Source of the DNA: an uncultured bacterium
GTDB taxonomy: Bacteria > Verrucomicrobiota > Verrucomicrobiia > Verrucomicrobiales > Akkermansiaceae
NCBI GenBank assembly: GCA_945947905.1
Contig: CAMEZO010000002.1
Span: 1,871 to 65,870, forward strand
Reading direction: 5' to 3'
DNA: 64,000 nt
The translations under genes and the position numbers were made by a program. The notes beneath the pieces were generated by a model that searched no databases, was not told where the DNA came from, and worked only from the letters and a program-made list of their open reading frames with translations. Positions within the stretch are counted from its first letter, which is position 1. Every line of letters begins with the position of its first letter. Shown here in pieces: positions 15,534 through 30,430 of this stretch.

Positions 15534-16763
15534 ATGGCAATACTGATAAACGAATGGGGAACGACGCCCATGCCGCCCGCCGCGCCGCATCTGATGCTGC
15601 AAGGCGTAGCCGGTGTTGACGCCGCCGCCCGCACGCTGGGCAAGGGCCTGACGGATGCCGCCGACGCCGCGGCAGAGTTGGCCGACGAACAGGAACAGGT
15701 AACAGGCACGGGAGAGCTCGCCGGCTTCGCCGCCCGCCTGCACCGCATAGGGCAGGAAACGCGCGAGGAGATGGCCGCCCGCCGCATACGCGACTGGGAT
15801 GCCGCCTGGCAGCAGACCAGCGAGCCCCTGCTGCTGGAGGCCGTCAACGAGCTGCCCGAAAACGTCCGCGACGCCGGCCGCGAGCTGGCCCGCGCCTACA
15901 ATGCGCAGGAGGCCGTGCGCGCCCGCCGGGAATACGAGCTGGGCCGCATCGAAACCGCGCGCATGAGCTGGCAGAACTGCTTGGACAACGCCGTGCAGAG
16001 CGGCGACAGCACCGCCCTGGACGCCTGGCTGCAGGCCGGCCGCGGTGTGTTTGTGGCAGAGGACAGGGTGGAACCCATGCGCCGCGAGCTGCGCAGCCGC
16101 AGTTGCCTGGCACAGTGGCAGCAGCGCCTGCAGCAGGAGCCCCTGGACGCCCTGACCGCCCTGTCCGGGGACGATGCGCGCCCCGAGTGTGCACGGGATG
16201 TCCGCGCCCTGGAGCAAGCCGTCGCCACCGCGCGCCGCAGCGCCTCCGGCTCCCTGGCCCGCCGCTGGCAGCAAGCCCTGGAGCAAGGCCTGGAACCCGA
16301 TGCCGACAGCGTCGCCCGCGCCCGCGCCGCCGGCCTGGTGCCCGCCGCGCCCGAGACCGCCCCGCAGCCCATGACCCCCCGCGAGAAAAGCGAGTGGCTG
16401 GGCCGCATTGATGAGCGAGACGCCGCCGACGAACAGACCCTGCGCCTGCAGATAGCCCTGGCCCCCCTGCCGGTGCAGGAGCGCAGCAGCCTCTTGCAGC
16501 GCATGGACGCCACCTGCGCCATCCCCGCCGATGACCGCCGCCGCGTGAGCCTCGCCCTCCGCCGCCTGTACCGCCGCGGGGTGCTCGGATGCCCCGGGGA
16601 TGCCGCCGCTCACCGCCGCCTGGGCCGTCTGCAGGAGGAGGCACTGCCCATCCTGCAACAGGGCGGGGCCGCCGCCGCAGAGCGCTGGGTCAGCAGACTG
16701 CCCTCCTACAGCGGGCGCTGGGTATGCTACGGCGATATGCAGCAGAAAGGAGTGCAGCGATGA
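15534..16763 (+). CDS. Phage-derived hypothetical protein (internal virion/ejection-protein-like)
   Basis: Ala-rich helical 409-aa ORF; first gene of a coupled operon ending in a terminase. Function inferred from context only. Confidence 0.55.
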   Translation: MAILINEWGTTPMPPAAPHLMLQGVAGVDAAARTLGKGLTDAADAAAELADEQEQVTGTGELAGFAARLHRIGQETREEMAARRIRDWDAAWQQTSEPLLLEAVNELPENVRDAGRELARAYNAQEAVRARREYELGRIETARMSWQNCLDNAVQSGDSTALDAWLQAGRGVFVAEDRVEPMRRELRSRSCLAQWQQRLQQEPLDALTALSGDDARPECARDVRALEQAVATARRSASGSLARRWQQALEQGLEPDADSVARARAAGLVPAAPETAPQPMTPREKSEWLGRIDERDAADEQTLRLQIALAPLPVQERSSLLQRMDATCAIPADDRRRVSLALRRLYRRGVLGCPGDAAAHRRLGRLQEEALPILQQGGAAAAERWVSRLPSYSGRWVCYGDMQQKGVQR

Positions 16764-19700
16764 CGGAGGAGCAGCCCCTTGCCGAGGCCCCGACGGCGGA
16801 GGAGGATCTCTACAGCCGCCCCCGGTCCCATACCCCCGCCGCCGACCCGCAGGCGGCCGAGGCCGATATGCCCGCCACGACGGAGGAGGAGAAGGAGCGC
16901 TACTGGCAGCGCGTGCTGACCGGTAACCCCGAAACCGTGCCCGCCGATGTCATTCGGCAGGCCTGCGCCGATGACCCCGCCGTCCCGGAGGAAGAGAATA
17001 CCTATGACCTCCTCACCGGCATCAACCGCTCCTGGTATGCCGACCACCACCCCGAAGAGAGCCGGGAGGAGCTGCTCCTGCGCTGGGCGGATGTGCGCCG
17101 CTCCCTGGCCGAGGAGCTGAACGTGGCCAACGACGAGCGCGAGGTCTTCACCGCCCTGGCCGACGAAAAGCCGATGGAGGAGCGCCGCCGTCTGGCCCGC
17201 GAGACCTACGGCCGCGCCTACCTGGCCGCTCTGCACGGCGAGGCCCGTCCCGAGCCGTCCCCCGGGGTCAGCCCCGAGGACCGGGAGCACCTGCAGAACA
17301 TCTGCCGCCGCGCCGAGCAGGATGCCGAGGAAAAGATGGCCCGCGTGCGCCCGCTGGTGGATGTGGTGGCCGACGGTATGGACGCCTTCATCGCCACGGA
17401 GCAGGAGGTGGCCCCCCCGCTGAGCCTGCGCGTCTACGGCGACAAGATGCGCCTGATGGAGGCCTGCTACCGCCTGGCCGAGATGCCGCAGGAGGACCGC
17501 GAGCTGCTGTACTATATGGCAGCGGACAAACTGCGGAAGCGCGTGAAGCCCGACTCCGCCGAGCCGGAGGGCTTCCTCTCCGCCGCCGCGCGCGCCTACA
17601 GACGCGGGTTTACGGACATCGGCACGGGGCTGGCGCAGGGCCTGGGGCACATCGGTGTGGCTACGGGGCGCAGGCTGGGCCATTTCCTGGACCTGCCCTC
17701 GGTGAACGCCGCGGCGGATACGGCGGAGGGCGGACTGCGCGTGTTGGATGAGATACGCGAGGCCGCCCAGCAGGATGTGCTGCCGCTGGACCTAGGCGAG
17801 GGGGCCGGCCTGGCAGAGCAGTACTTTGTGGAGGCCATGGGCAATGTGCCCGCCGCCGCTCTGGCCCTGTGCGGGGGCGTGGGCTTCGGGGTGCTGGGGC
17901 TCAGCGGCATGGGGCAGAGCGTGTCCGAGGCCCGCCGCCGCGCGCCGGAGAACAGCCAGGAGCTGCAACTGGCGGCCGGTGCGGTGGGCGGGTGTGTGCA
18001 GGCCGGTATCTGCGCCCTCATGGGCCGGGTGGGCGGCAAGCTGCTGGAGCAGAACCTCACCGCCTTTGCCCGCGCCCACGGACGGGGCATCGGGGCGTAT
18101 TCCCTGGCGGCCCTGCGCACCTCCGGCGGGGTCGCGGCAGAGGGCGGCAAGATGCTTGCAGCCGTCCGCTTGGGGCAGGCGGCGGAGCAGGGGGCGCAGG
18201 AGCTGGCCGCGCAGGCGGAGCAGCGGGCCTCAAATATCAACTGGCAGGAGTTCGGGGACAACCTCACGGACATCGAGGCCAACATGCGGGAGGCCGCCGT
18301 GAACCTGCCCTTCGTGCTCATGGGGGCCGGCAAGGCCTCGCTGCATCACTTCCGCTGCCGCCGCCAGCTTCTGGACCCGCAGGGCGGCGCCGGGGAATGG
18401 GGGCTGAAGCCGGAGGAGCTCGCCCGCATCGCCGCCGAGCCGGATGCCCTGCGCAGCAGCGAGATGATGCGCGAGGCCATCCGCAGGACCCCGCGTTGGA
18501 ACTCCGCGCAGAAGCTGCTGCCGCTGGCACGCCGCGCGCTCAACCTGCTCAATACGCAGCAATTTCGCCCCGCTTACAGCACGGGCGAGCTCTGCGATTT
18601 CTTGGGGATGCCCGCCTCCTTCGGGGAAGGGGTGAACCCCGCCGCCCCGGCGCCGGCGCGCCGCAGTCTGTCCGCCCGCTTGGCGCAGAATGATGAATGG
18701 ACCGCCCTCGCCCGGCCCGGGGAGGCCCTGCACCTTCCCGCCCAACTGCCGCCGCCGGAGAAGCCCCGTGCGTGCGAGGCTGCCGTGAAGCTGGCCGCGG
18801 AGGACCTGCAGATGCTCGCTTACCGCCGTATCCTGGGCGCCCAGGCGGACGGGGAGCTGGCCGCGGGAGAGGCCGCCGCCGGGAAGTCCGAGCTGATGCG
18901 GCGCGAGCTGCCGGATGCCGTGAGCCGCGCGCTGGTGCGCTGTGCGCAGGGGGAGCTGCCCGCCTATGCCCTGCGGGATCTGGAGGGCGAGCTGCTGGGG
19001 GAGCCTTCCGGCTTGCATCCCACCGCCCGCCGCTACCTGCTCCGGCGCATGGCGGCCTACTCGGACTTTGCGGCCACGGGGGCGGAGCCGCAGATGGCCA
19101 AGCAACTGGCCGTGCTGGGCGCGCGCCGCTGGGCGGAGTCGCTCTACTACCTGCTGCCGCGTTGCCCGGCGTTTCAGGAGCTGCTGGTCAGCGGTCGCTC
19201 GCCCGCGCAGGCTTTCGCGGAGCTCTCGCAGCGTTACCTCGGCAGTGCTGCCTGCGAGGTGCCGCCGCCGGCGGAGTCGAATGCCGCCGTCTTTGCGCGC
19301 TATGCCGCGCTGACCGGTAACAAGGTGGAGAGTGCCACGGGGCCGGACGGCGTGACGCGCCTGCGCGCTCGGCGTCCGGATGGTCGCTACACGCCCTGGC
19401 ACAGCACGCAGGAGCAGGTGATGAACGATGTCGCGGGCCACGCAGCGCTGATGTTCGGCGGTTATATGAGCACCGGGGGCATGGCGAACATGCGGCCCCG
19501 CGTCTTCTCCCGCTTCGATCAGCTGGGGGCGCTGGCGGTGCACGACCTGTACGGGGCGTGGTTCGGCAGCGCCACGGGGTGGGTGCCGGGCTTGCAGATC
19601 GAGCGGCTCCGGCACTCCATGCGCGGTGCCTGGCGCGGGGATGGCATCACGCCCGTCCTGCTGAAGGAGGCGCGCGGACCGCAGCAGTACACGGCGGAGC

Positions 19701-21652
19701 TCTATTCCGTCGTCAATCCCGTCTCGATGCTGCAGGCGCGCCTGGCTGCTTACTGGCGCGGGCAGATAGAGGGCGGCCACACCACCGCGGAGCAGGTCAT
19801 GGACTTCCTCGCGGCGCACGACCGCCTCACCCCGGAGGAGCGCGCGTCCACGGAGGCTATCGCGGCCCTCCGTTTCCGGCGCGAGCCGGGGGGACCGCGC
19901 ATCATGCTCCCGCGCGATTTCCCCGGTATGTACAACGAGGTCGCGGGGCGCATGGCGGAGTATATGACGGAGTACCTGGTGCAGAACCCGGACGCCGTGC
20001 CCCTGCCGGGGTCCGTGCGCCGTTGGCTGGATTACGCTCCCTTCATGCCCCCGGAGAAGCCCGCCGGGGTGACGGCCGATCACAGGAGCCGCGAGGTGGG
20101 GGAGAAGATGGAGCTGCTGGGCGTAGACTCCAACCGCCTGGCGGCCCGGAAGGTGCAGGGCTGGGCAGGGCGCGCGGAGGCTCTGCGCCGCGAGGTATCG
20201 GCGGAGGATGCGGCCTTCTTCCGGCAGCATCTGCAGGGGGCGTTCACGCTGCCGCCGGCGCAGCAGCTGGAGCAGGGCTGGGCTTACCGCTTGGGCGGGG
20301 AGCAGGCTGCCATGGCGACGGGCAGTACCCTGCGGCGCTTGCTGACGGACCCGGGGCGGGAGCTGCCCCGCCTCTCGGCGGAGGATTCGGAGCACCTCCT
20401 CCCCATGGCGGAGTCCGTGGTGCGGGCTTTCCCGACGCTCGCCGCAGAGGGCTCCGCACCGCAGGGGGCCGTGGGGCAGGCGCTGGGCAATCTGGCGGCG
20501 GTGCTGGCCGAGCACCCGGAGCTGCATGAGTACGCGCCGGCGCAGGAGCACTTCCGCGTGCACCGTATGCAGGTGCGGGATCTGCCGCCGGCGCAGGACC
20601 CCGGTACCTTCGCTACCTGGGCTACCCGGCCCGCAGGGATGAAGCCCGGTTATGCGCTGGAGGAGAACATTCCCATGCCGGAGTGGATGCGGCAGGACCC
20701 GCGGGCCATCCCGGCGCTTCATACCATGCACGCCCTGCGGATGATGACGGCGGACGGGCCGGTCTATACGCCCATGGGTATCCTGACGCCGCAGGGCTTT
20801 GTGGGCGGGCGCTACGGGCAGAATCCCGCCCCGCTTCGGGGCTGGCGCTCGCGCCCCGCGCTGGAGAATATCCTGCGCATCCTGGATGAGGCGTACGCCA
20901 CCGGCGGCGGGGAGCCCGTGCCCGTCTGCGGAGTGCGGCTGCGGGGGCTTAACCTCGCGGAGCTGGACCTGCGGCCTCTGCGGGACATCACGGTCTACAG
21001 CAGCCCGGAGACTTCGGGCGGTTGCTACCGCTTGATGCCGGGGAACCCGGAGATGCCGTCGCTGAAGGTCGCGGAGCCTTACCTCGTCAAGAGTTTCGAC
21101 GGTATCCTGTGCCGGGGTATCGGCGGCATCCCGGCCAAGGAGCTGCGCGAGTCGGCCCCGGCGCCGGAGTCGTACGCCGTGCCGCTGCGCGGGTTTGTGC
21201 GCACGCGTTTTCAGCCCTGCTCGGAGTACATGGCCTACGAGAATACCCTGGCGGCTACCACCCGCGCGGTGGATGAGATGCTGGCCCTGGGGGAGCGCTG
21301 TTACTTGGCCCCGCCGGATGCCTACCTGCGCTTCGCCTTGCAGGAGGGCATCTGCCGCCTGTGCGAGGATACGGGCTTCTCGTACTTCCTGGAGGGGCAG
21401 GGGGTGCAGGAGCTCTCGCCCGGGCAGGCGCGCGCCGTGGCCTGGGTGCGTACCATGGTGGCGGCTCTCGGCGACCCGTCGGAGGAGTCGTTCAATGCCT
21501 TCGCGCAGGCTTGCCGCAGCATCAGTGCCGATGAGGCGCTGCGGAAGCAGATGGTGGAGGTGTTCAACTGTGAGCGCGACCCCGCAGACCCGCCGCCTCC
21601 GCGTAAGCGTACCCGTAAGAAGAACCCGGATAACATTAACATGCTCTGGTGA
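16760..21652 (+). CDS. Large (1630 aa) phage-derived protein, ejection/DNA-transfer-protein-like
   Basis: ATG 16760 overlaps the upstream stop (ATGA), RBS GAAAGGAG. Central Gly/Ala-rich hydrophobic helices (AALALCGGVGFGVLGLSGMG). No catalytic motif recognised. Confidence 0.6.
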   Translation: MTEEQPLAEAPTAEEDLYSRPRSHTPAADPQAAEADMPATTEEEKERYWQRVLTGNPETVPADVIRQACADDPAVPEEENTYDLLTGINRSWYADHHPEESREELLLRWADVRRSLAEELNVANDEREVFTALADEKPMEERRRLARETYGRAYLAALHGEARPEPSPGVSPEDREHLQNICRRAEQDAEEKMARVRPLVDVVADGMDAFIATEQEVAPPLSLRVYGDKMRLMEACYRLAEMPQEDRELLYYMAADKLRKRVKPDSAEPEGFLSAAARAYRRGFTDIGTGLAQGLGHIGVATGRRLGHFLDLPSVNAAADTAEGGLRVLDEIREAAQQDVLPLDLGEGAGLAEQYFVEAMGNVPAAALALCGGVGFGVLGLSGMGQSVSEARRRAPENSQELQLAAGAVGGCVQAGICALMGRVGGKLLEQNLTAFARAHGRGIGAYSLAALRTSGGVAAEGGKMLAAVRLGQAAEQGAQELAAQAEQRASNINWQEFGDNLTDIEANMREAAVNLPFVLMGAGKASLHHFRCRRQLLDPQGGAGEWGLKPEELARIAAEPDALRSSEMMREAIRRTPRWNSAQKLLPLARRALNLLNTQQFRPAYSTGELCDFLGMPASFGEGVNPAAPAPARRSLSARLAQNDEWTALARPGEALHLPAQLPPPEKPRACEAAVKLAAEDLQMLAYRRILGAQADGELAAGEAAAGKSELMRRELPDAVSRALVRCAQGELPAYALRDLEGELLGEPSGLHPTARRYLLRRMAAYSDFAATGAEPQMAKQLAVLGARRWAESLYYLLPRCPAFQELLVSGRSPAQAFAELSQRYLGSAACEVPPPAESNAAVFARYAALTGNKVESATGPDGVTRLRARRPDGRYTPWHSTQEQVMNDVAGHAALMFGGYMSTGGMANMRPRVFSRFDQLGALAVHDLYGAWFGSATGWVPGLQIERLRHSMRGAWRGDGITPVLLKEARGPQQYTAELYSVVNPVSMLQARLAAYWRGQIEGGHTTAEQVMDFLAAHDRLTPEERASTEAIAALRFRREPGGPRIMLPRDFPGMYNEVAGRMAEYMTEYLVQNPDAVPLPGSVRRWLDYAPFMPPEKPAGVTADHRSREVGEKMELLGVDSNRLAARKVQGWAGRAEALRREVSAEDAAFFRQHLQGAFTLPPAQQLEQGWAYRLGGEQAAMATGSTLRRLLTDPGRELPRLSAEDSEHLLPMAESVVRAFPTLAAEGSAPQGAVGQALGNLAAVLAEHPELHEYAPAQEHFRVHRMQVRDLPPAQDPGTFATWATRPAGMKPGYALEENIPMPEWMRQDPRAIPALHTMHALRMMTADGPVYTPMGILTPQGFVGGRYGQNPAPLRGWRSRPALENILRILDEAYATGGGEPVPVCGVRLRGLNLAELDLRPLRDITVYSSPETSGGCYRLMPGNPEMPSLKVAEPYLVKSFDGILCRGIGGIPAKELRESAPAPESYAVPLRGFVRTRFQPCSEYMAYENTLAATTRAVDEMLALGERCYLAPPDAYLRFALQEGICRLCEDTGFSYFLEGQGVQELSPGQARAVAWVRTMVAALGDPSEESFNAFAQACRSISADEALRKQMVEVFNCERDPADPPPPRKRTRKKNPDNINMLW

Positions 21653-23247
21653 TGGATAAGCGGGCTCCCATTCGCCGCAGGCTGAACTCGCCCCTGTGGC
21701 GGCTCAATCACCTGTATTGGATCGAGAATAAGCAGGGGCAGGTGCAGCGTTTCACCATGAATGCCGCGCAGCTCCGCCTGCATCGCAACCTCTGGTCTCG
21801 CAATGCCGTGCTCAAGGCGCGTCAGTTGGGTATCTCCACCTATGTGGCGCTCTTCATGTTGGATTCCTGCCTCTTCACCCCGGGCTTTCACGCCGGTATC
21901 GTGGATAAAACGCTGCCGGATGCCGAGTTGAAGCTGGAGAAGATCCGCTTTGCCTGGGAGCACCTGGACTACCTGCCGCCGGGGGCGGGGGCGCAGGAGC
22001 GTTCGCTGGCCTACCTGGGCAGGGTGGTGAAGCGGGGCACCGGCCTGCTGCGCAGCGGGGCGGAGGTGCTGCCGGCGGATGCCCGCGAGCGTCTGGCGTT
22101 CTCCAACGGCAGCGATGTGCGCCTGGGTACCACCATGCGCGGCGGTACGCTCAACCTGCTGCATGTCTCGGAGCTGGCCCACACCTCCGTGCACGCCCCG
22201 TGGCGTGCGCGCGAGGTGCTGACGGGCGCGGTGAACAGCGTGCCGCTCTCCGGGCGCGTGATCCTGGAGAGTACGCACGAGGGCGGGCGCTACGGGGTGA
22301 ACTATGAGCTGATGCTGCAGGCGATGGAGAACCGCGCCCACCGGGTGCTCTCGCCGCTGGATTTCCGCTTCTTTTTCTTCGGGTGGTTTGATAACCCGGA
22401 GTACGCTCTGCCCGGGGCGCTGCCGGCGGGGGATGCGCTGCATGCGTACTTCGCCGGGCTGGCGGAGCAGGGGATCTGTCTGTCGCAGGCGCAGCAGGTG
22501 TGGTATGCCCGTATGGCGCGCACTATGGGGGGCGCTATGCGGCAGGAGTACCCTTCCTCGCCGGAGGAGGCGTTCAGCGTCGGTAATGAGGGTGCCATCT
22601 ACGCCGCGCAGCTCATGCGCCTGCGGGAGTCCGGGCGCATCGGGGCGGATTTCGCGGTGCATCCCTTCGCGCCGCTCTACACGGCCTGGGACCTGGGGAT
22701 GAGCGACCACACGGCTATCTGGCTCGTGCAGGCCATCGGGGGGCAGGTCTACTGGCTGCACCACTACGCGGCCAATCAGCTGCCCGTGGAGCACTATGCC
22801 GCCAAGATCCGCGAGTGGGAGCAGTCCTACGGCCGCTGCGAGGCGCACTTCCTGCCGCATGATGCCGCCCACCGCGACCCGCACGGGCAGTCCTATGTGG
22901 AGTGCCTGGCGCGGCTCGGGATCACAGCGGTGCGGGTGGTGCCGCGTACCACGGATGTGTGGCGCGGTATCAATGACCTGCGCCGCCTGCTGGTGAACAG
23001 CTGGTTCCACCGGAACACGTTGGAGGAGCGCTCCGACCCGGCCGGCCGCCGCGTGCCTTCCGGGCTCGCCTGCCTGGAGAATTACCGCACCGCGCCCCCC
23101 TCGCCCTCCGGTTCCTTCCGCGAGGCTCCCCTGCACAATGAGTTCTCCCACAGCGCCGACGCCGCCCGCACCTTCGCCGAGGCCGCCTCCCACGGCCTCC
23201 TCACCCCTCTCTCCTCCCGCCGCCCCTCCCTCGCTCGCATGCAGTGA
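21652..23247 (+). CDS. terL: Phage terminase large subunit
   Basis: RLNHLYWI N-terminus, Walker A LKARQLGIST, Walker B LHVSE, LESTHEG coupling motif, QEYP, nuclease AWDLGMSDHTAIW and HSADAAR. TGATG overlap with the upstream gene. Confidence 0.92.
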   Translation: MDKRAPIRRRLNSPLWRLNHLYWIENKQGQVQRFTMNAAQLRLHRNLWSRNAVLKARQLGISTYVALFMLDSCLFTPGFHAGIVDKTLPDAELKLEKIRFAWEHLDYLPPGAGAQERSLAYLGRVVKRGTGLLRSGAEVLPADARERLAFSNGSDVRLGTTMRGGTLNLLHVSELAHTSVHAPWRAREVLTGAVNSVPLSGRVILESTHEGGRYGVNYELMLQAMENRAHRVLSPLDFRFFFFGWFDNPEYALPGALPAGDALHAYFAGLAEQGICLSQAQQVWYARMARTMGGAMRQEYPSSPEEAFSVGNEGAIYAAQLMRLRESGRIGADFAVHPFAPLYTAWDLGMSDHTAIWLVQAIGGQVYWLHHYAANQLPVEHYAAKIREWEQSYGRCEAHFLPHDAAHRDPHGQSYVECLARLGITAVRVVPRTTDVWRGINDLRRLLVNSWFHRNTLEERSDPAGRRVPSGLACLENYRTAPPSPSGSFREAPLHNEFSHSADAARTFAEAASHGLLTPLSSRRPSLARMQ

Positions 23248-23286
23248 GGGCAGGGGCGCGAGGGCTTAACAGAGAGCGAAAAAAAA

Positions 23287-23669
23287 GCTGACCGCGGAAG
23301 GGAAGGTGCATCAGCAGAGCCGCGCGAGGGCGTATGAGAGACTTCACACCGCCGTGCTGATAGGAACCGAGAAGTTGCTGACCGCGAAAAAACAGACTTC
23401 ACGCCGCTGGGGTGGGAGAGAGCGAGAAGATGCTGACCGCGGAATAAAAGGAATTCTTGGAGAGTCGGTGGCCTGCATAGCTCGGTTCAGACTTCACGCC
23501 GCCGGGGTGGTAGGTCCCTTAGTTATTTTAATAAATAAATGATGCTGCCTACTATGACTTTGCTCTGAAGTCTTGCTGAAGTCCCGAAGGCCAATCAGTC
23601 TCCGAAAATTCCTTTTATTCCGCGGTCCTTTTCCACTCGCCCACGACAGATACAGCGGGATGAAGTCTC
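23287..23669. repeat. Composite palindromic repeat, copy 1 (left arm around the GxxExxY gene)
   Basis: Motif A CAGACTTCAYRCCGC at 23338, 23393, 23488 and inverted at 23655. Motif B GACCGCGGAATAAAAGGAATT at 23432 and inverted at ~23600-23627. Inverted core at 23508-23600. Confidence 0.9.
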
Positions 23670-23695
23670 CCATTCCCTCTGCCCGGCTCCGCTTA

Positions 23696-24127
23696 TTAAG
23701 GATGGGGGATTTGCTCACCGGCCGATTTTGCTGCACCTTTGGTACATACAACACGACGCCATTCGCAACCCCCTTGTTTGCCGAAATTGAACAGAAGCCC
23801 GACCTGTAAGTGACTTGCTTTAAGGTAGTTGTAAACCTGGTTCTTGTGGGCGTCAACGAGTTCAGAGACAGCCTTCAATTCAACAATGATCTTGTCGAAG
23901 CACACGAAATCCGCCTTGAATAAAGGCTCCAGAATGCTATCCTTGTAATGGATTTTCAACAAGGCCTCCCGCTGAAAGGGGATTCCCCTTGCCTTGAATT
24001 CACTGGCAAGCGCATGCTGGTACACAACCTCCGAAAAGCCATGTCCCAAGACTTCATATACCTCAAGAGCAGCCCCTATAATGGCACCGGTCATGCTTGA
24101 ATCAATGATTTTTGAGTACTTCGACAT
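23696..24127 (-). CDS. GxxExxY family protein (PD-(D/E)XK nuclease superfamily)
   Basis: GHGFSEVVYQHAL signature, ADFVCFDKIIVELKA (D...ExK), QVYNYLKA and GLLFNFG. Visibly AT-richer than the host genes. Confidence 0.92.
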   Translation of the reverse strand: MSKYSKIIDSSMTGAIIGAALEVYEVLGHGFSEVVYQHALASEFKARGIPFQREALLKIHYKDSILEPLFKADFVCFDKIIVELKAVSELVDAHKNQVYNYLKASHLQVGLLFNFGKQGGCEWRRVVCTKGAAKSAGEQIPHP

Positions 24128-24242
24128 GCCTCTATCTCATACTACAGTTCATTCCTCAAGTCAAGACCAAACCACCTTATTTCCCCTTTTTTTATCACTT
24201 ACCTACCATGCAGCCCCCTCTCCGCCCGTCTCCTCCAATACG

Positions 24243-24761
24243 GCGGCATGAAGTCTGTACTGAGCTATGCAGGCCACCGACTCTCCAAAAATTCCCTTTA
24301 TTCCGCGGTCATCCTCTTCTCGCTCTCTATTGTCACAGCGGCATGAAGTCTGCACCAAGCTATGCACGGTTCCGATTTTTTCCAAGCTCCCCCTTCATCC
24401 CGCTGTAGCTGTCGTGGGCGAGTGGAAAAGGACCGCGGAATGAAAGGAATTCTCGGAAACTGTCTATCATGCTATTCACAGTCAAGACGTCGGAGCATAT
24501 TCATTGTAGGTAGCTTCGGATTTTAATTAAAACAACTCAGGGACCTACCATCCCTGCGGCATGAAGTCTGCACCGAGCTATGCAGGCCATCGACTCTCCA
24601 AAAATTCCTTTTATTCCGCGGTCATCCTCTTCTCGCTCTCTATTGCCACAGCGGCATGAAGTCTGCAAGGAGCCAAGCATGTCAATCAGTTTCCGTATCC
24701 TTCCTGAAATTCTGCGTTCTGAAAACTTCAGCTCTCTCCCACCCCGGCGGTATGCAGTCTG
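24243..24761. repeat. Composite palindromic repeat, copy 2, plus an inner 95-bp tandem
   Basis: Inverted motif A at 24243, 24338, 24556, 24651, 24747 (95-96-bp steps within each run). Core at 24460-24550. 24393-24665 is the reverse complement of 23393-23665. Confidence 0.9.
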
Positions 24762-24789
24762 TTTTTTTCGGACGTTTTCAGAAATACGC

Positions 24790-24818
24790 TTGACTTTCTA
24801 CCCGTTTGAAGCTACAAT
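24790..24818 (+). promoter_or_regulatory. Promoter of the large PEP-CTERM gene
   Basis: TTGACT-17 nt-TACAAT. Confidence 0.7.
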
Positions 24819-24848
24819 TTCCACGGCCCATTGTGGCCTGATGTCGTC

Positions 24849-27800
24849 ATGAAACTCCGTCTTCCTCTCCTCCTCCGCTTGGCTTTGTTGTCTACTGCTG
24901 CCGCCTACACGCTCGGCAGCGGCTGCCTCTTCGCTGATGATGCGCCCGCCGATGCCGCGCAGGACGACCCCATCGCCGAGGCCGTGGACGAGGAAGAAAG
25001 CGACAGCCCCGCCATCGGCTTCGAGGGCTATACCGAGTCTCAGTTGGTGGATATTCAGTCATCCGACTCCGCAGGCTCCGTCATCCGGCAGATGCTGGAG
25101 AACTCCACCACGGGCGCGGTTGCCAACGTGGGAACCACCTCCTCCACCTCCAACGGCGCCACCACCGCCGCCGAATCCCCCGCGCTCACCCTCACGGCCC
25201 CCGCCGAGCCCGTGACCGACACCTCCCTGACCACCTCCACCCTTTCCGATTCCGCCGGCGAGGGGGCTGTCGCCCCCTTCTTCAGCGCTGAAGAAGCCGC
25301 CGCTCTCGTTGTCGCAAGCCCTGCAACGAGTACACCCTCCCTTAAAAACACCTCAACAGCCACCCTCTCCTCGTCCGACGCATCGGACGAAACTACCTCT
25401 TCCGTGGCTGCTAACGGTGCCTCCTCCTCCATCGCCTCCGTAGGCTCTGCCGGCGGCGCCGGCGCCTCTTCCGGTGGTGGTTCTGCTTCCTACTCCATCA
25501 CCTCCTCGGCCCCCGATAGCTCTTCCTCCCTCGTCATCACCACCCCCACCGACGACACCTCCTCCGACCCCATCGCCGACGACACCTCCTCCGACCCCAT
25601 CGCCGAGGATGTCCTCGAAGACTCCACCACCGAGGACACCACCACCACTTCCACCCTCTCGGATTCTTCTGCCTCCACCCTTGCCGGCACATCCTCTACC
25701 TCCGCCACCATCCGCACCCTCCCGGCGTTGAAACTGCTGGGCGCGACGGAGACATCGACTCAGGGAACAGTTAAGGTTGATGGCGTTGATAGACCATCCG
25801 GTGAAAAATCCGATAAAGGTGTGCAGTTTTTGTATGGCAAGATGGGTGGTAGCGGAGATGATGTCAATATCATTTATTTACATAATGACCCGTCAACCTA
25901 TCCCAGCGTTGTCGAAGTAGACGCTAATTCGTTTTATATTTGCCCGAATAACAAAAGTCCCAAGTTCAGTATAGGGGCTCTCAAAACTGATACCCCTGCG
26001 GCTACTGTTAAAATCCAAAATAACGAGTGGAGCGGGAATGAAAATTCTACGCTGACCCTCACTCTGGATACTCTTTCCGTCAACGGCTCGGCTTCATTGG
26101 AAGTCAACCAGACTCGCACCGGCGCAATTACCGTTTCCATAGGTAAGGTGGCGAATAGCTCAACGGAGTCCACAACGGGTCCTCTTCTCACCAGCGTCAA
26201 AAACTCCGGAACGCTTAATCTGGGTACAAACGCCTCCGGAGAAGGGGAGTCAAAAGTTACAGCGTCGTCCATTTCCATTGGCTCTCTGACGAACAGCGGC
26301 ACGATGACTCTGAATGGAGAGACGACCATTACGGAGAAGCTGACAAACACCGGTACGTTGACGGTAAATAGTGGCGCGACTCTTGTCGGAAAGATTGATT
26401 CAACAGGGACACTGAAGTTGGATGGTGTATGGGATCTTCGCGGTCAAGATAATATGATTAAAGATGGTACCGACCGTCTCGAGACACAGCTTAGAAAGAT
26501 CAATGCGGGTTCCGGAACTGTTAAGGTTAAGGCTGACGGTGCGTATGTTTTCATGCAAGATTATGCCTTGGGTGGACTGTCGCTGGAATTTAGCGGTACC
26601 AGTACCAGTGTCGCTGAGATTAACGGCTATGGATATAAAGACGGTAGTTCCGAGGTCACTGTTGGTGTCGGTTCCCAAGTTAAGACAGGAGGGAATCTGC
26701 GCATTGAATCCAAAGCTACCCTCCTTGTATCCGGAGGAACTGTAAATTGCGGCGGAACCTTGCAGTTAGGGCACGAAGAGACTGGTACAAATGGCAAAAA
26801 TTACGGTCGTTTGACTGTTGCGGAGGGTGGTCACTTGACTGCGGCGAGTATAGGGCAAACGGGAAATCAATATTCCGTGGTCAAGGATGGGAATTTGTTT
26901 ACCATGACAGGAGGAAAATTGACTATTACCTCTGCGATAAATGATGCAATATCGAAGGTTTATACTGTGATTTCCGGGGGTACACTCGATACGTCGCAGG
27001 CCGCTTGGGGAATTAAAGGTAATGGTGACGGGAGTGTGAGTGTGGGCGGTGTAACTGTTTCCGATGCCTATACGACAGAGGAGGGGACGACAGCCTACAG
27101 CCGCAACGCCCTGACATTGACCGGAGCGAACATTACCGGCAACATCAGCTTGGCAGGGAAGGCTGACTTGAACCTGAAGAACGTGACGGTCACCGGGGAG
27201 GATGTCACAGTGGGGGGCGATAACCGAACGATCAGTGTGGCCGAGGGCAGTCTGACTGTTGAGAAGTCTGTTACGACAAAGGGGCTTTTGCAGGTTCAGG
27301 AGAATGCAACCCTGAAACTCAACAACGCGGATACGACGGTGACCACCATCACGAACCGGGACGGTTCTACGGAATCTGCCGCGATTACCGGTGGTAGTGT
27401 GTCGATGACATATGATACTGCTGATAATAAGGGCGTCATCTCCGGGGCGACAATCAGCAATGCTGCAATTGATGTGTCACAGCGGAGTGTGTTGGCGCTT
27501 TCGAACTCTACGCTCGATAGCGGAGTAATTACCCTGAACAGCAATGCTGTGCTCGAGTTGGCCGCTTCAGTCAACGGGACTCTTACCGGTAGTATCGTGT
27601 CTGCTGAAAATGCTACGGAAACGACGCTTCGGGTGAGTGGCTCCGCCGTTGAGACCTTGATCGGGACGGTGAATGTGGCTGCAACGGAGGTTCAATCCGG
27701 TACATTAACCCTGAGCGGCGATAGCATTGCGCACAGCCTGGGGGCTGTGACGGTGGGGAGCAACGCTGCACTGAACGTTGAAGGAAGTTCGCAGACCCTG

Positions 27801-29900
27801 AACTTGAGTGCTGTGGTGCAGAACCAAGGAACCCTGAGCCTCGGTGGTGTTTCTACATTGACATTCACGGTGTCGGATGTGTTCGATAGCTTCTCGTACA
27901 CAGATACAGTAACCGGAGCCGGGGCGAAGAATGGGTTTATCGACCGGTATTGGCTCATTCGGAACAGCGGAAGCGGGACGATGAGTGGACTTGCAGTTTC
28001 GGCGGTGACCGTCAACAGTACTTCCAAGAATGCTATATCTGAAACAACCGGTCTGTATGCCGCAGTGGAGGCAGCAGATCTTGGGTTGACGGATGGTACC
28101 GACCTGAACAACATCTACGTTGTCAACGAGGGCAATGTGGTCTACGATGCAGACTCGAATAGTTCCGGAGCTTCCGCCGTGAAGCAGCTTTGGCTGACGG
28201 GTGGCACGCTGGCATTGGATCAGTCCGATATTAAGTCCGGGGTGGGTGTGCATGTGAAGCAAGACAGCACGGTGAATATCGGAGCTGATCGCACCTTGAC
28301 GGATTCACAGGTGGCCTCTGTTGCGAGCGGGAAAACGCTGACTCTGACGGGTTCGGGAACCTATAGTTTGGCAGTTGATCAAATAGGCGAGACCGCATTG
28401 TTGACATCGGGGGTCGCATTGGCCACGGGTGAAAGCGGTTTCACGGGGACGGTATTGTTGAACAAGGGCACGACCTTGAACGGAACGGATTTGAGCGCGT
28501 TGACCAACGGCAGTTACTCCTCCGTGACAATGAACGGCGTGTCCGGGACGCTGAAATCCGGTGACATCAGCACGAATTTGGTGTTGAAGAACCATGTTGA
28601 TACCGGAAGTGCCGATATTGTAGCTTTGTCGCTCGAAGGAGGTGGAGCGAATATCAATTTCAACGGGGCTATCAGCGGTACCGGAGAGATGAAGATCGCT
28701 CCGAGCGATGCCGCCGCCGAGAATACTCTTATTTTCTCCGGTGATGTAAGCGGATGGACGGGTAAGTTGGAGGTATTCAAAGGTATAGCGAACGTGACAT
28801 TTACCGGAGAGGCCAAGGAGATCAATGCCTACGTTGCTGATACGTTTAGTGATTCTGTGCTGAATATGGTAGTCGATGCCTCGGAGGGCAGGAGTTTCAC
28901 TCAGGGCATTTCGGCGGATACCTTGCGGTTGACAAATGGAACGGAAGGCAAGGTTGTCGATGTGTCAGGTGGTTCCTATATTGTTTCTGCGAAGACAGAC
29001 CTGACAGAGAGTAATGTCATTCTGCAAGTCAAAGGAACAGGGTCTGAGGATAGTAATCTGTATAGCTCTCTTACAGAGTTGGCCTCTGATGGTTCCTCCG
29101 GCATTAATATCTCCGATAGTGAAAAGACTTTGACGAAGATTCGGACTAATACACAAGATGCTTCAAGCTCCGGAAACGCAACTCTTTCATCCTGCACGTT
29201 TACTTATAATAATTCCACCGCAAAGATCTCGGGATCTACCATCGACCGGGCGGTCATTGATGTGGTGAACGGCAGCACCTTGGAATTGAGCGGTGTGGTG
29301 CTCACGAATTCCTGTTGGGTGCGTGATGATGACGCGAGTACCCCGGCGCCTACCGGGAAATTGGTTTTAGACGGGGTGGAGCTGCAGATGGCTAAGGGGA
29401 CCGCGAGCACGGAGGATGGCTCGGGGGTGGCCCTGACGCTCACCGGCGGCACGACGGCAGCTAAGAATGCTGATGGTTCGGCGAAGACGCTTACCGGAAA
29501 GGTCTATGTGATGGATCTCACCCAGATCTCCGATTTTGCCACTATCTCGGGCAGCGGGAATGGGCTGACCCTGAACTTCGATACATACGGGAATGGCTTT
29601 GCAGAGCTTTATGAGACCCTGAAGGGCTATGATTATGTCGCTGTGAAGTTCAGCGATGATGTGCTCTCGGTAGACTTCGAGACCCTGAAAGTGACCTCAA
29701 AGATTACAAACGGCCAGAATGCCGAGGCAACATCGCAGGGCTACTATTACAATAACAACGGCGCCAGCGGTGTGGTGGTTTACTTCGATGCTATCGCTCT
29801 GCCGGAGCCGACGACGAGCACTCTGGGCCTGCTGGCCTTGGCGGCCCTCTGCGCACGGCGCCGTCGCTCCCGCACCCGCGCGCACGCCGAGCATGCATAG
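24849..29900 (+). CDS. Large PEP-CTERM surface protein (Ser/Thr-rich linker plus beta-helix-like passenger), 1683 aa
   Basis: Leader MKLRLPLLLRLALLS, S/T/D-rich stalk, Gly/Thr/Ser beta-rich repeats, C-terminal LPEPTTSTLGLLALAALCARRRR. Confidence 0.88.
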   Translation: MKLRLPLLLRLALLSTAAAYTLGSGCLFADDAPADAAQDDPIAEAVDEEESDSPAIGFEGYTESQLVDIQSSDSAGSVIRQMLENSTTGAVANVGTTSSTSNGATTAAESPALTLTAPAEPVTDTSLTTSTLSDSAGEGAVAPFFSAEEAAALVVASPATSTPSLKNTSTATLSSSDASDETTSSVAANGASSSIASVGSAGGAGASSGGGSASYSITSSAPDSSSSLVITTPTDDTSSDPIADDTSSDPIAEDVLEDSTTEDTTTTSTLSDSSASTLAGTSSTSATIRTLPALKLLGATETSTQGTVKVDGVDRPSGEKSDKGVQFLYGKMGGSGDDVNIIYLHNDPSTYPSVVEVDANSFYICPNNKSPKFSIGALKTDTPAATVKIQNNEWSGNENSTLTLTLDTLSVNGSASLEVNQTRTGAITVSIGKVANSSTESTTGPLLTSVKNSGTLNLGTNASGEGESKVTASSISIGSLTNSGTMTLNGETTITEKLTNTGTLTVNSGATLVGKIDSTGTLKLDGVWDLRGQDNMIKDGTDRLETQLRKINAGSGTVKVKADGAYVFMQDYALGGLSLEFSGTSTSVAEINGYGYKDGSSEVTVGVGSQVKTGGNLRIESKATLLVSGGTVNCGGTLQLGHEETGTNGKNYGRLTVAEGGHLTAASIGQTGNQYSVVKDGNLFTMTGGKLTITSAINDAISKVYTVISGGTLDTSQAAWGIKGNGDGSVSVGGVTVSDAYTTEEGTTAYSRNALTLTGANITGNISLAGKADLNLKNVTVTGEDVTVGGDNRTISVAEGSLTVEKSVTTKGLLQVQENATLKLNNADTTVTTITNRDGSTESAAITGGSVSMTYDTADNKGVISGATISNAAIDVSQRSVLALSNSTLDSGVITLNSNAVLELAASVNGTLTGSIVSAENATETTLRVSGSAVETLIGTVNVAATEVQSGTLTLSGDSIAHSLGAVTVGSNAALNVEGSSQTLNLSAVVQNQGTLSLGGVSTLTFTVSDVFDSFSYTDTVTGAGAKNGFIDRYWLIRNSGSGTMSGLAVSAVTVNSTSKNAISETTGLYAAVEAADLGLTDGTDLNNIYVVNEGNVVYDADSNSSGASAVKQLWLTGGTLALDQSDIKSGVGVHVKQDSTVNIGADRTLTDSQVASVASGKTLTLTGSGTYSLAVDQIGETALLTSGVALATGESGFTGTVLLNKGTTLNGTDLSALTNGSYSSVTMNGVSGTLKSGDISTNLVLKNHVDTGSADIVALSLEGGGANINFNGAISGTGEMKIAPSDAAAENTLIFSGDVSGWTGKLEVFKGIANVTFTGEAKEINAYVADTFSDSVLNMVVDASEGRSFTQGISADTLRLTNGTEGKVVDVSGGSYIVSAKTDLTESNVILQVKGTGSEDSNLYSSLTELASDGSSGINISDSEKTLTKIRTNTQDASSSGNATLSSCTFTYNNSTAKISGSTIDRAVIDVVNGSTLELSGVVLTNSCWVRDDDASTPAPTGKLVLDGVELQMAKGTASTEDGSGVALTLTGGTTAAKNADGSAKTLTGKVYVMDLTQISDFATISGSGNGLTLNFDTYGNGFAELYETLKGYDYVAVKFSDDVLSVDFETLKVTSKITNGQNAEATSQGYYYNNNGASGVVVYFDAIALPEPTTSTLGLLALAALCARRRRSRTRAHAEHA
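25549..25602 (+). repeat. 27-bp in-frame tandem duplication in the stalk
   Basis: CCGACGACACCTCCTCCGACCCCATCG x2 (DDTSSDPIA x2). Confidence 0.9.
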
Positions 29901-30375
29901 CCTTGAGCAGACTTCACACCGCTGTGGTAGAAGCTCCCGAGAAGTTTCTGATCGCGGAATAAAGGGAATTTTCGGAGAGGGAGAGGCATGCATAGCCTTG
30001 AGCAGACTTCATACCGCCGTAGTGGGAGAACCCGAGAGGTTGCTGACCGCGGAATAAAAGGAATTTTCGGAGACTGTATATCATGCTGCTCTCAGTCAAG
30101 ACGTCAGAGCATATTCATTGTAGGTAGCTTCAGAATTTTATTAAAATAACCAAGGAGCCTACCACCCCGGCGGCATGCAGTCTGTACCAAGCCAAGCATA
30201 CCACCGACTCTCCAAAAATTCCTTTTATTCCGCGGTCCTCCAACTCCCGCTTCCAACCATCCCGGCGGCATGCAGTCTGCATCGCGCTAAGCACGCTGTC
30301 AACTCTCCCAAAAATTCTTTTTATTCCGCGGTCCTTTAACTCCCGCTTCCTACCACCCCGGCGGCATGAAGTCTG
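29891..30375. repeat. Composite palindromic repeat, copy 3
   Basis: Motif A at 29908 and 30003, motif B at ~29948 and 30042, core at 30072-30164, inverted motif A at 30170, 30265, 30361 (95/96-bp steps). Confidence 0.9.
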
Positions 30376-30430
30376 CCACCCCTTTGCTCCTTCTGCGTTC
30401 GGTTTTTGAGGGGGCGGTGGAGATTTTCTC

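Follow-up and report, generated by a model that had tools for sequence, protein, structure and literature searches.

The subject of this analysis is a small gene of the GxxExxY family together with the palindromic repeats around it, which lie between a terL-like gene and a giant PEP-CTERM gene in a 64,000-nt stretch of DNA (hereafter the window; positions 1,871 to 65,870 of contig CAMEZO010000002.1) from an uncultured bacterium of the Akkermansiaceae. An initial annotation, made from the sequence alone, had described the gene as sitting between two long inverted arms and had proposed that gene and arms form a nuclease-plus-repeat mobile system. The two arms are copies of a dispersed ~275-bp palindromic intergenic element and no dedicated pair, and GxxExxY genes at large are non-randomly embedded in lineage-specific palindromic repeats. 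Since repeats of this kind also border GxxExxY relatives in other bacteria, gene and repeats are probably one selfish element. The features of the locus are collected in Table 1.

The two arms as copies of a dispersed palindromic element

The ~275-bp inverted repeat reported by the initial annotation was readily recovered: arm 2 (24393-24665) matches 23665-23393 at 83.6% over 274 nt (E 4e-79, blastn against the window), and a repeat finder resolved the same similarity into a pair of 183 nt at 85% (I2; 23393-23575 / 24483-24665) and an inner pair of 70 nt at 94% (I7; 23596-23665 / 24393-24462), the latter reproducing the 66/70 match given earlier. Each arm is also palindromic in itself (inverted repeats I9 and I12), and it is for this reason that the arms match each other in direct orientation too (61%; D1). 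The inverted ends of the element run ~20 nt past the arm coordinates 23393-23665 / 24393-24665, and the outer end of arm 1 (23670-23691) reaches to 8 nt from the GxxExxY stop codon. In a complete element, a ~95-nt unit and its reversed copy enclose an AT-rich oriented core; single and tandem units occur around the arms as well, among them the two extra units noted earlier (at ~24200-24392) and the degenerate ones at 23282-23392, which recur in two related loci (L130 and L131). The core 21-mer GACCGCGGAATAAAAGGAATT, with at most 3 mismatches, occurs 9 times in the window as against 0 in 100 shuffles, and CAGACTTCATGCCGC 13 times as against 0.28 expected; all matches of both fall in 23.3-24.8 kb and 29.9-30.4 kb, the second of these intervals holding the gene-less copy that had already been pointed out (cluster 29891-30376).

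The family extends well beyond the window. When the exact 21-mer GACCGCGGAATRAARGGAATT was scanned in one genome per species across 185,579 species representatives, 45 loci were found, of which 42 lie in a single genome, SFDX01 (labelled as an Akkermansia muciniphila metagenome-assembled genome), and the other 3 are single stray matches elsewhere. SFDX01 is a sister genome, with 95% identity to the window over 18788-23275. In most of the loci, plus/minus pairs of the arm motif stand ~171-174 nt apart (30/50 pairs at 171-173 nt), and BLAST delimited at least 43 elements of at least 150 nt in the sampled SFDX01 loci. The spread of the motifs through a genome, anticipated by the initial annotation, is therefore plain in SFDX01, but only one of 43 element-bearing loci there, the ortholog of the window locus (L023), also holds a GxxExxY gene. 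In pig-gut and faecal metagenomes containing the sequence, the assembler word depth of the arms is 40-55x that of flanking single-copy DNA, and the read depth of the GxxExxY gene is that of a single copy. The element is thus present in about 50 copies in the Akkermansia-like genome, which are mostly gene-less and intergenic. Do such elements serve as borders of cargo cassettes? In the sister genome, the DNA between neighbouring elements consists of ordinary genes, e.g. rplI (ribosomal protein L9); this ruled out cassette borders, and the elements are therefore best described as an intergenic repeat family resembling repetitive extragenic palindromes (REPs) or bacterial interspersed mosaic elements.

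Across 38 aligned copies the mean column identity is 74%, and a 25-bp arm, GACCGCGGAAT.AAAGGAATTTT.GGA, is almost invariant together with its inverted partner. This arm is made up of three 9-nt GGAAT sub-repeats (CGCGGAATA, AAAGGAATT and TTCGGAGAC). RNAalifold, run on the same 38 copies, predicted only the invariant stem and returned no compensatory changes; the 25-bp arm is conserved in sequence, not in pairing.

The cores of the elements further hold a terminator-like stem of the GGGAcctaccaTCCC type followed by a T-rich run (23504-23528 on the plus strand and 24556-24528 on the minus strand), placed on the strand opposite to the core orientation of alignment A2, so that the elements could act as one-way transcription terminators. 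Repeat words were also found in a pig-gut metatranscriptome; the metatranscriptome and RNA-seq contigs are sparse and show no more than these words and a relative of the gene.

The GxxExxY gene and its predicted nuclease

An intact, AT-richer GxxExxY gene had been named as the only gene between the arms, and this description holds. The protein matches TIGR04256 (E 2.6e-39, 134.2 bits with a cut-off of 35, profile positions 2-116 of 116) and PF13366 (PDDEXK_3; E 4e-39, 134 bits with a cut-off of 22, full length), its gene has a GC content of 47.5% compared with 61.5% for the window, and its nearest relatives are found in Bacteroidales. Only PD-(D/E)XK families occur among its Pfam/NCBIfam matches, and searches of PADLOC and PHROGs with the protein returned no match. 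The residues G30-F-S-E33-V-V-Y36, D73 and E83-L-K85 are invariant in 18 homologues (alignment A1), as is Q97xxxY101. Judged from these residues, the predicted catalytic motif set E, D, ExK and QxxxY is of the RecB/Cas4/lambda-exonuclease type and intact. An AlphaFold2 model (pLDDT 84.8, pTM 0.78) shows a restriction-endonuclease-like alpha/beta fold, for which the top Foldseek matches were Cas4 SSO0001, LHK-Exo, lambda exonuclease and RecE (PDB entries 4ic1, 3syy, 3sm4 and 3h4r; E 1.5e-4 to 9e-3), with TM-scores of only ~0.45-0.53; a sequence search found no solved structure for the protein.

The candidate promoter TTGACT-17-TATGAG proposed by the initial annotation is present in the sequence and is kept in L023, L046 and L047; a consensus promoter scanner omits it because position 6 of its -10 hexamer is not T. 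The upstream region that contains it can be aligned to the repeat element, namely to its core and a portion of its R unit. The GxxExxY family itself comprises 27,410 clusters at 50% identity, and, as had been stated earlier, no role is assigned to it in the papers searched: its function is given as unknown, or the family is named only in passing. A literature search by family names and motif strings likewise found no prior description of a GxxExxY-plus-repeat element. One of the homologous loci (L082:3534-3926) holds a second, divergent GxxExxY-family open reading frame (ORF) of 130 aa, with the motif GPGLLESAYE...IIELKAV, 1.3 kb from the first, so genomes can hold several paralogues close together.

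GxxExxY genes are embedded in palindromic repeats

If gene and repeats belong together, other GxxExxY genes should have comparable flanks, and this was examined in a sample of 80 metagenome loci with homologues of 45-63% identity. Direct repeats of at least 40 bits between the 500-nt flanks were found for 25/54 GxxExxY genes and for 4/87 controls, and inverted repeats for 10/54 and 1/87, respectively, the controls being positions shifted by 2 kb. An inverted-repeat bracket score was higher for 76 GxxExxY ORFs than for 196 other ORFs of the same loci (Mann-Whitney p = 5e-12). Inverted arms beside other members of the family, which the initial annotation had proposed to look for, are thus a recurrent feature. 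In addition, at least 3 copies of one pentamer (CGAAT, CGGAT, CAGAT or GGAAT) per 150-nt flank were counted in 104/155 GxxExxY flanks but, among other genes, all located at least 600 nt away, in 53/337 flanks (Fisher p = 6e-29), which is a ~11-fold enrichment of pentamer-rich flanks over other gene flanks in the same loci. GxxExxY genes are, in other words, non-randomly embedded in lineage-specific palindromic repeats.

The arrangement is often remarkably tight. In a frequent layout, CGAACACGAATnnnnCGAATnnnACGAAT-ATG...stop-ATTCGnnnATTCGnnnnATTCGTGTTCG, the ORF fills the gap between two inverted arms of three sub-repeats each, and in many loci it lies within 0-10 nt of them. This L-gene-R order was found in 16 loci, an R-gene-L order, with the gene between two complete hairpin elements, in 9, and an L-gene-L-core-R order in 11. 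The sub-repeat cores are common to both arms; the spacers between them differ mostly by transversions and are not complementary, which fits an array of short protein sites at helical spacing better than hairpin pairing. The type of pentamer goes with the protein subclade, a pattern that shared ancestry could also yield. Many of the loci sit in polysaccharide-biosynthesis clusters, and no tRNA genes were found from which the flanking direct repeats could have originated.

The association reaches beyond the Bacteroidales as well. A 66%-identical homologue on a Verrucomicrobia-like contig (L049) lies between two elements homologous to those of the window, the arms of which have diverged to GACGCGGAATTTTCGGAATTTCGGGAA, and plasmid-borne homologues of 34-54% identity with flanking inverted or direct arms were found in Treponema, Bernardetia, a fusobacterium and Gemmatirosa. 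The same arm architecture thus stands beside the gene in Verrucomicrobiota, Bacteroidota, Spirochaetota and Gemmatimonadota, with few examples across phyla.

Gene-less derivatives and a Prevotella capsule site

The sampled loci contain 55 distinct gene-less hairpins of at most 140 nt, some of which carry traces of the gene. Two copies in L070 have the opening 13 nt of the ORF (ATGATAGTCTATA) fused to the following arm, and a 74-nt hairpin in L086 and L142-146 has the loop ATGTTTTATTATAAG+TATAA, corresponding to the start of an ORF that reads MFYYK...; the ORF remnants in gene-less hairpins comprise the first 13-15 nt.

A capsule site of Prevotella, situated between a gene for a 423/427-aa epimerase and an Epimerase_2 gene, takes three alternative forms in related strains. 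In L147-156 it is occupied by a GxxExxY gene whose arms are of the CGAAT type, in L064, L066 and L067 by a different GxxExxY allele whose arms are of the CGGAT type, and in L142-146 only by a 74-nt CAGAT hairpin with a 15-nt ORF remnant. All three are bounded by CGAACAC...GTGTTCG directly after the epimerase stop codon, and gene-bearing and gene-less forms therefore constitute one element family. The common bounds together with the ORF remnants imply that gene-less forms arise at least partly by internal deletion, and the 15-nt remnant marks the gene-less capsule allele as a deletion derivative and not as a naive target. The initial annotation had proposed to look for empty sites and target-site duplications; filled and gene-less alleles do occur at this capsule site, and no duplication was found outside 17 element ends. 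For the hairpin copies of L086, copying by recombination is a better fit than a cut-and-paste process. That the 74-nt mini-hairpin transposed independently was also considered, and is not supported, as the L086 copies share outside flanks with the capsule site.

Strain-to-strain variation of the cassette

The two-arm layout of the window is strain-specific, and the pair is neither a conserved nor a defining feature. In the sister genome (L023) and in two metagenome contigs (L047 and L048) the gene is opposite to its orientation in the window, i.e. in the same sense as terL, with a single unit upstream and one full element downstream. In L046, a Logan contig whose GxxExxY protein is identical to that of the window, and in contig X2, the 3' end of the gene is joined to arm-2-type sequence; this junction represents the flipped state, the crossover having occurred within the inner 70 nt that are 94% identical. 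Contigs X1 and X3 keep the window orientation and have lost the core of arm 2, 24403 being joined to 24651. A further relative (L130; 97% identical to window 17652-23514) carries another island after arm 1's ATTCCGCGGT, with a 192-aa ORF, a 227-aa Phage_integrase ORF and a proline-rich repetitive stretch (L130:6100-9314). The two ORFs are probably one split tyrosine recombinase, no GxxExxY gene occurs within 3.2 kb after ATTCCGCGGT, and this conserved motif may be an attachment point. Finally, an 83% terL relative (L133) has neither the repeats nor the GxxExxY gene downstream of terL. Conserved, then, is the module of promoter, gene and element, and variable are its orientation and its neighbours. 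Since inverted homologies of 70-270 nt suffice for ordinary recombination, no dedicated enzyme is needed for the inversion, and exchange between inverted copies can account for the variation among these strains. The contigs compared end at the repeats, where assemblies are broken.

Two further arrangements were observed. At L046:770-910 the contig leaves the core of the downstream element after 'GGATTTTAATTA' and continues into TTGACT-17-TATAAT and a new ORF (MIAENEYISLKGMSREQRDALRESFLRAYA...), so that this strain has a further gene inserted into the palindrome, at its AT-rich centre (TTAATTAA). In an RNA-seq contig of run X23 ('organism B'), sequence ~87% identical to the window has 24778-24839, in reverse complement, linked to 23284-23386. 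Such a junction would represent yet another flank arrangement, with the cassette absent or the whole block inverted, in a contig too short and too divergent to read.

Neighbouring genes and feature coordinates

To the left of the arms lies the terL-like gene (21649-23247; phrog_2 and Terminase_6C matches), preceded by a 1,687-aa ORF without a family match, the two together spanning 16589-23247. Homologues of the terL-like protein with 60-83% identity are widespread in Akkermansia contigs, and the region may therefore be a conserved prophage-derived or gene transfer agent-like module rather than an active phage. To the right lies the 1,689-aa gene 24831-29900, which has a weak PEP-CTERM motif at its end and a promoter-like site ahead of it at 24790-24818, outside the arms. 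This Ser/Thr-rich giant gene has a GC content of 49-60%, below that of its surroundings, and repeat clusters on both sides (23280-24770 and 29891-30376); in L133, the 83% terL relative, terL is followed by other genes. The entire 23.3-30.4 kb block may be an acquired island.

Table 1. Coordinates of the GxxExxY gene, its promoter and the repeat features in the window
Feature	Position	Strand	Remarks
Degenerate repeat units just 3' of the terL-like gene	23282..23392	+	repeat families D6 and D9; motif-like GACCGCGGAAGGGAAGG at 23282-23306; unit at 23339-23395
Arm 1, one copy of the ~275-bp palindromic element	23393..23691	-	core in minus orientation, which is the sense of the GxxExxY gene
Sub-repeat arms of arm 1	23435-23455, 23607-23627		outer end 23670-23691
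GxxExxY gene, 143 aa	23696..24127	-	only credible gene between the arms
Candidate sigma-70-type promoter	24136..24164	-	TTGACT 24159-24164, 17-nt spacer, TATGAG 24136-24141; GAGG just 5' of ATG
Two extra repeat units between the gene promoter and arm 2	24200..24392	-	unit ends 24243-24257 and 24338-24352; sub-repeat arm 24290-24310
Arm 2, second copy of the palindromic element	24393..24665	+	core in plus orientation; sub-repeat arms 24431-24451 and 24603-24623
One degenerate unit just before the PEP-CTERM gene promoter	24666..24770	-	D4; match at 24747-24761
Gene-less repeat cluster between the PEP-CTERM gene and a SulP transporter gene	29891..30376	+
Third full element, inside the gene-less cluster	~30003-30279		arms 30045-30065 and 30217-30237
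Extra units of the gene-less cluster	29950-29970, 30313-30333

A proposed two-part selfish element and its alternatives

What, then, connects the gene with its repeats? We favour, with a probability of roughly 0.5, the reading that the locus is a member of a widespread two-part selfish element, composed of a nuclease gene and a palindromic repeat, whose spread is driven by the nuclease. One part would be the gene for a minimal RecB/Cas4-like PD-(D/E)XK nuclease; the other would be palindromic DNA, namely an inverted pair of arms with three sub-repeats each, spaced 9-10 nt, the core of which reads GGAAT in the Akkermansia-like genome and CGAAT, CGGAT or CAGAT in Bacteroidales. The element would have multiplied to ~50 mostly gene-less intergenic copies, with one copy of the gene amid a cluster of them; the two 275-bp arms are two such copies, in opposite orientation by happenstance, and recombination between them and neighbouring units would have flipped, duplicated or deleted parts of the cassette, depending on the strain. 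The nuclease would act on the repeats: it might bind the sub-repeat arrays, probably as a dimer on two inverted arms, and cut at or near the dyad, whereupon recombinational repair from another copy could place the gene, or internally deleted gene-less derivatives, into other palindromes. The logic of such spread would be homing-like or REPIN-like. From the mobile system originally proposed, this reading retains the gene-repeat association, the gene-less copies and the alleles, but not the arm pair as the defining feature, nor any target-site duplication.

Several observations weigh against it. The association could by itself stem from shared ancestry of the gene and its flanks, and the link between protein and repeat is drawn from sequence. 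No target-site duplication was found outside 17 element ends, where the inverted repeat continues for ~20 nt. (A direct repeat of 16-20 nt around the window cassette was considered as such a duplication and rejected, being the outer L-arm sequence of the element.) The coexistence of L-gene-R, R-gene-L and L-gene-L junctions means that there is no single insertion point of the kind a strict homing site gives, and the window ORF, with a promoter of its own and ~110-180 nt between it and the GGAAT arms, departs from the tight layout of Bacteroidales. With one gene to ~50 gene-less copies, cutting, if any, must be rare or tolerated. The L086 hairpin copies and the capsule site have 20-30 nt of outside flank in common, and these copies may therefore be segmental duplicates instead of independent insertions. 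One-sided changes in the element stem are skewed to the G.U type (21 vs ~7), which hints at a single-stranded or RNA-level role. As to scope, the 80 loci are partly redundant and come mostly from gut Bacteroidales, and a crude 6-mer enrichment among six distant plasmid homologues was clearly positive only in Prevotella nigrescens; because this test is otherwise not convincing, the cross-phylum claim rests on individual inverted and direct repeats. It is only tentatively that we extend the proposal to the whole family, in which case GxxExxY proteins would be the enzymes of an unrecognised class of selfish elements across several phyla, each element being a palindrome with three sub-repeats per arm and the minimal nuclease as its sole gene, and each nuclease recognising the arms, cutting the palindrome and spreading itself and gene-less derivatives by recombinational repair; the REP-like repeat families of Bacteroidota, Verrucomicrobiota and further phyla would then have been seeded by such a class.

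Gene and repeats might, alternatively, merely be co-located. The repeats would then be of a REP-like kind, or resemble miniature inverted-repeat transposable elements (MITEs), and would depend for their movement or upkeep on something else, e.g. host recombination or a transposase located elsewhere, and GxxExxY would be an unrelated small accessory gene (e.g. a defence or toxin-like nuclease) that gathers in dispensable, recombination-prone spots and is exchanged together with its flanks. This would accommodate the elements that flank ordinary genes such as rplI, the presence of the gene in only 1/43 element-bearing loci, the hairpins beside some control ORFs, the 16% of other-gene flanks that are pentamer-rich, and the horizontal transfer suggested by an AT-rich gene whose nearest relatives are Bacteroidales; the place is, moreover, a rearrangement hotspot, with the integrase island at the same position in L130 and the other gene in the element core of L046. 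Against it stand the ~11-fold enrichment over other gene flanks in the same loci, the recurrence of ORFs within a few nt of the arms in many lineages, the ORF termini carried by gene-less hairpins and the same arm architecture with the gene in four phyla, and a defence role in particular finds no match among known defence families. We regard mere co-location as rather unlikely. Less probable still is that the palindromes, like REP elements and rRNA intervening sequences, operate in transcripts or as DNA signals, e.g. by terminating or insulating transcription, by stabilising mRNAs as 3' hairpins or by serving as RNase III sites, with the GxxExxY ORF expressed or processed from the hairpin and a nuclease that may target RNA or be unrelated to repeat spread. 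The layout does recall the ORFs in the loops of 23S rRNA intervening sequences. The G.U-compatible skew in one orientation, the terminator-like stem and T-rich run in each core, and the repeat words in the metatranscriptome point the same way, as do the elements 3' of the GxxExxY gene and of the PEP-CTERM gene, which share the sense of the respective gene, and the Bacteroidales hairpins, which begin right after host stop codons around an ORF without a separate promoter. Yet no Rfam family matched (E up to 1 on window 22.5-31 kb; gathering thresholds on 10 homologue loci), covariation is absent, the arms are kept in sequence while their sub-repeat spacers are not complementary, and the predicted fold and motifs are those of RecB/Cas4/lambda-exonuclease DNA nucleases; the RNA evidence is thin and could be DNA carry-over.

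The initial annotation had also entertained an invertible or excisable cassette, and in its strongest form this would be a programmed switch, with the arms as recombination sites and the orientation controlling expression of the giant PEP-CTERM surface protein or of the nuclease. Both orientations do occur among strains (terL sense in L023, L047 and L048, the flipped junction in L046 and X2, and the opposite sense in the window and X1/X3), and the crossover falls in the 94%-identical inner 70 nt. What speaks against a program is that the gene carries its own promoter and the promoter-like site of the PEP-CTERM gene lies outside the arms, that Pfam/NCBIfam searches found no recombinase among the neighbours at 16.6-32.2 kb, and that ordinary recombination suffices; relatives with the flipped gene have only one element and could not flip back in the same way, and mixed orientations within one sample were not seen among assembled Logan contigs, which break at repeats. 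A programmed switch is accordingly very improbable.

The selfish-element reading bears on more than this locus. GxxExxY (PDDEXK_3) is a very large and routinely annotated family, for which nesting in sub-repeat arrays offers a concrete, testable substrate, and the nesting also suggests an origin for the abundant intergenic palindromes of gut Bacteroidales and the Akkermansia lineage. The repeats break assemblies and drive strain-level rearrangements beside surface-protein and capsule genes. Should the nuclease indeed act on the repeats, it could be a source of programmable, long-site DNA recognition.

Comparison with known systems

The element resembles several known systems without coinciding with any of them. 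With MITEs and their parent insertion sequences it has in common terminal inverted repeats, abundant short non-autonomous copies, an intergenic location and the retention, in some copies, of the termini of the coding element; it differs in that neither a transposase (DDE, HUH or serine/tyrosine) nor a target-site duplication is present, and its spread looks recombinational and not cut-and-paste. The protein shares its predicted fold and the catalytic motifs E, D, ExK and QxxxY with Cas4, RecB and lambda exonuclease, but is much smaller (a core of ~125 aa) and has no CRISPR or recombination-operon context; unlike in Cas4, the conserved alignment columns of GxxExxY contain no Fe-S cluster cysteines. 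ORF-bearing 23S rRNA intervening sequences, which encode proteins of the four-helix-bundle / S23p family (TIGR02436), are located within rRNA genes and removed by RNase III. In them, too, a long inverted repeat has a small ORF without assigned function in its loop, and ORF-less stem-loops occur elsewhere, whereas the sites considered here are intergenic and the protein has a nuclease fold.

Homing endonuclease genes, which include members of the PD-(D/E)XK class such as I-Ssp6803I, offer a further parallel. As with these, the small nuclease ORF can stand amid symmetric DNA and part it into what would be two half-sites, filled and gene-less alleles are found at one orthologous position, and flanks may be co-copied; the ORF stands exactly between the inverted sub-repeat arms, the putative recognition site, in the 16 L-gene-R loci, with other arrangements besides. 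Here, however, there is no intron or intein, the putative target is a multi-copy intergenic palindrome, more than one type of junction occurs, and the gene-less allele examined contains ORF remnants and is no pristine target.

The closest parallel in organisation is with the RAYT/REP-REPIN systems, as the initial annotation aptly recognised with regard to layout. Their enzymes, the REP-associated tyrosine transposases (RAYTs), are reportedly IS200/IS605-like HUH Y1 enzymes. In both systems a single-copy enzyme gene lies amid lineage-specific short palindromic intergenic repeats, which often flank it in inverted orientation; gene-less copies of the repeats number in the tens to hundreds and are arranged in tandem or mosaic clusters. 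Here the enzyme gene is flanked by its associated repeat family (in the window, L023, L047 and L049, and by the statistics across the family), and dispersed lineage-specific gene-less palindromes are present (42 loci in one genome of 185,579 representatives). The enzyme sets the systems apart, because it is of the PD-(D/E)XK type and not HUH. The repeats differ too: the arms consist of three sub-repeats at helical spacing, not of a single GC-rich hairpin and its conserved 5' tetranucleotide, the Akkermansia element measures ~275 bp and has an oriented core, and some gene-less copies look like internal deletions. There is a real, if lesser, chance that such differences make the GxxExxY-plus-repeat system a distinct class in its own right; if the nuclease does act on the repeats, it would represent a second, mechanistically different solution to the RAYT/REPIN lifestyle.

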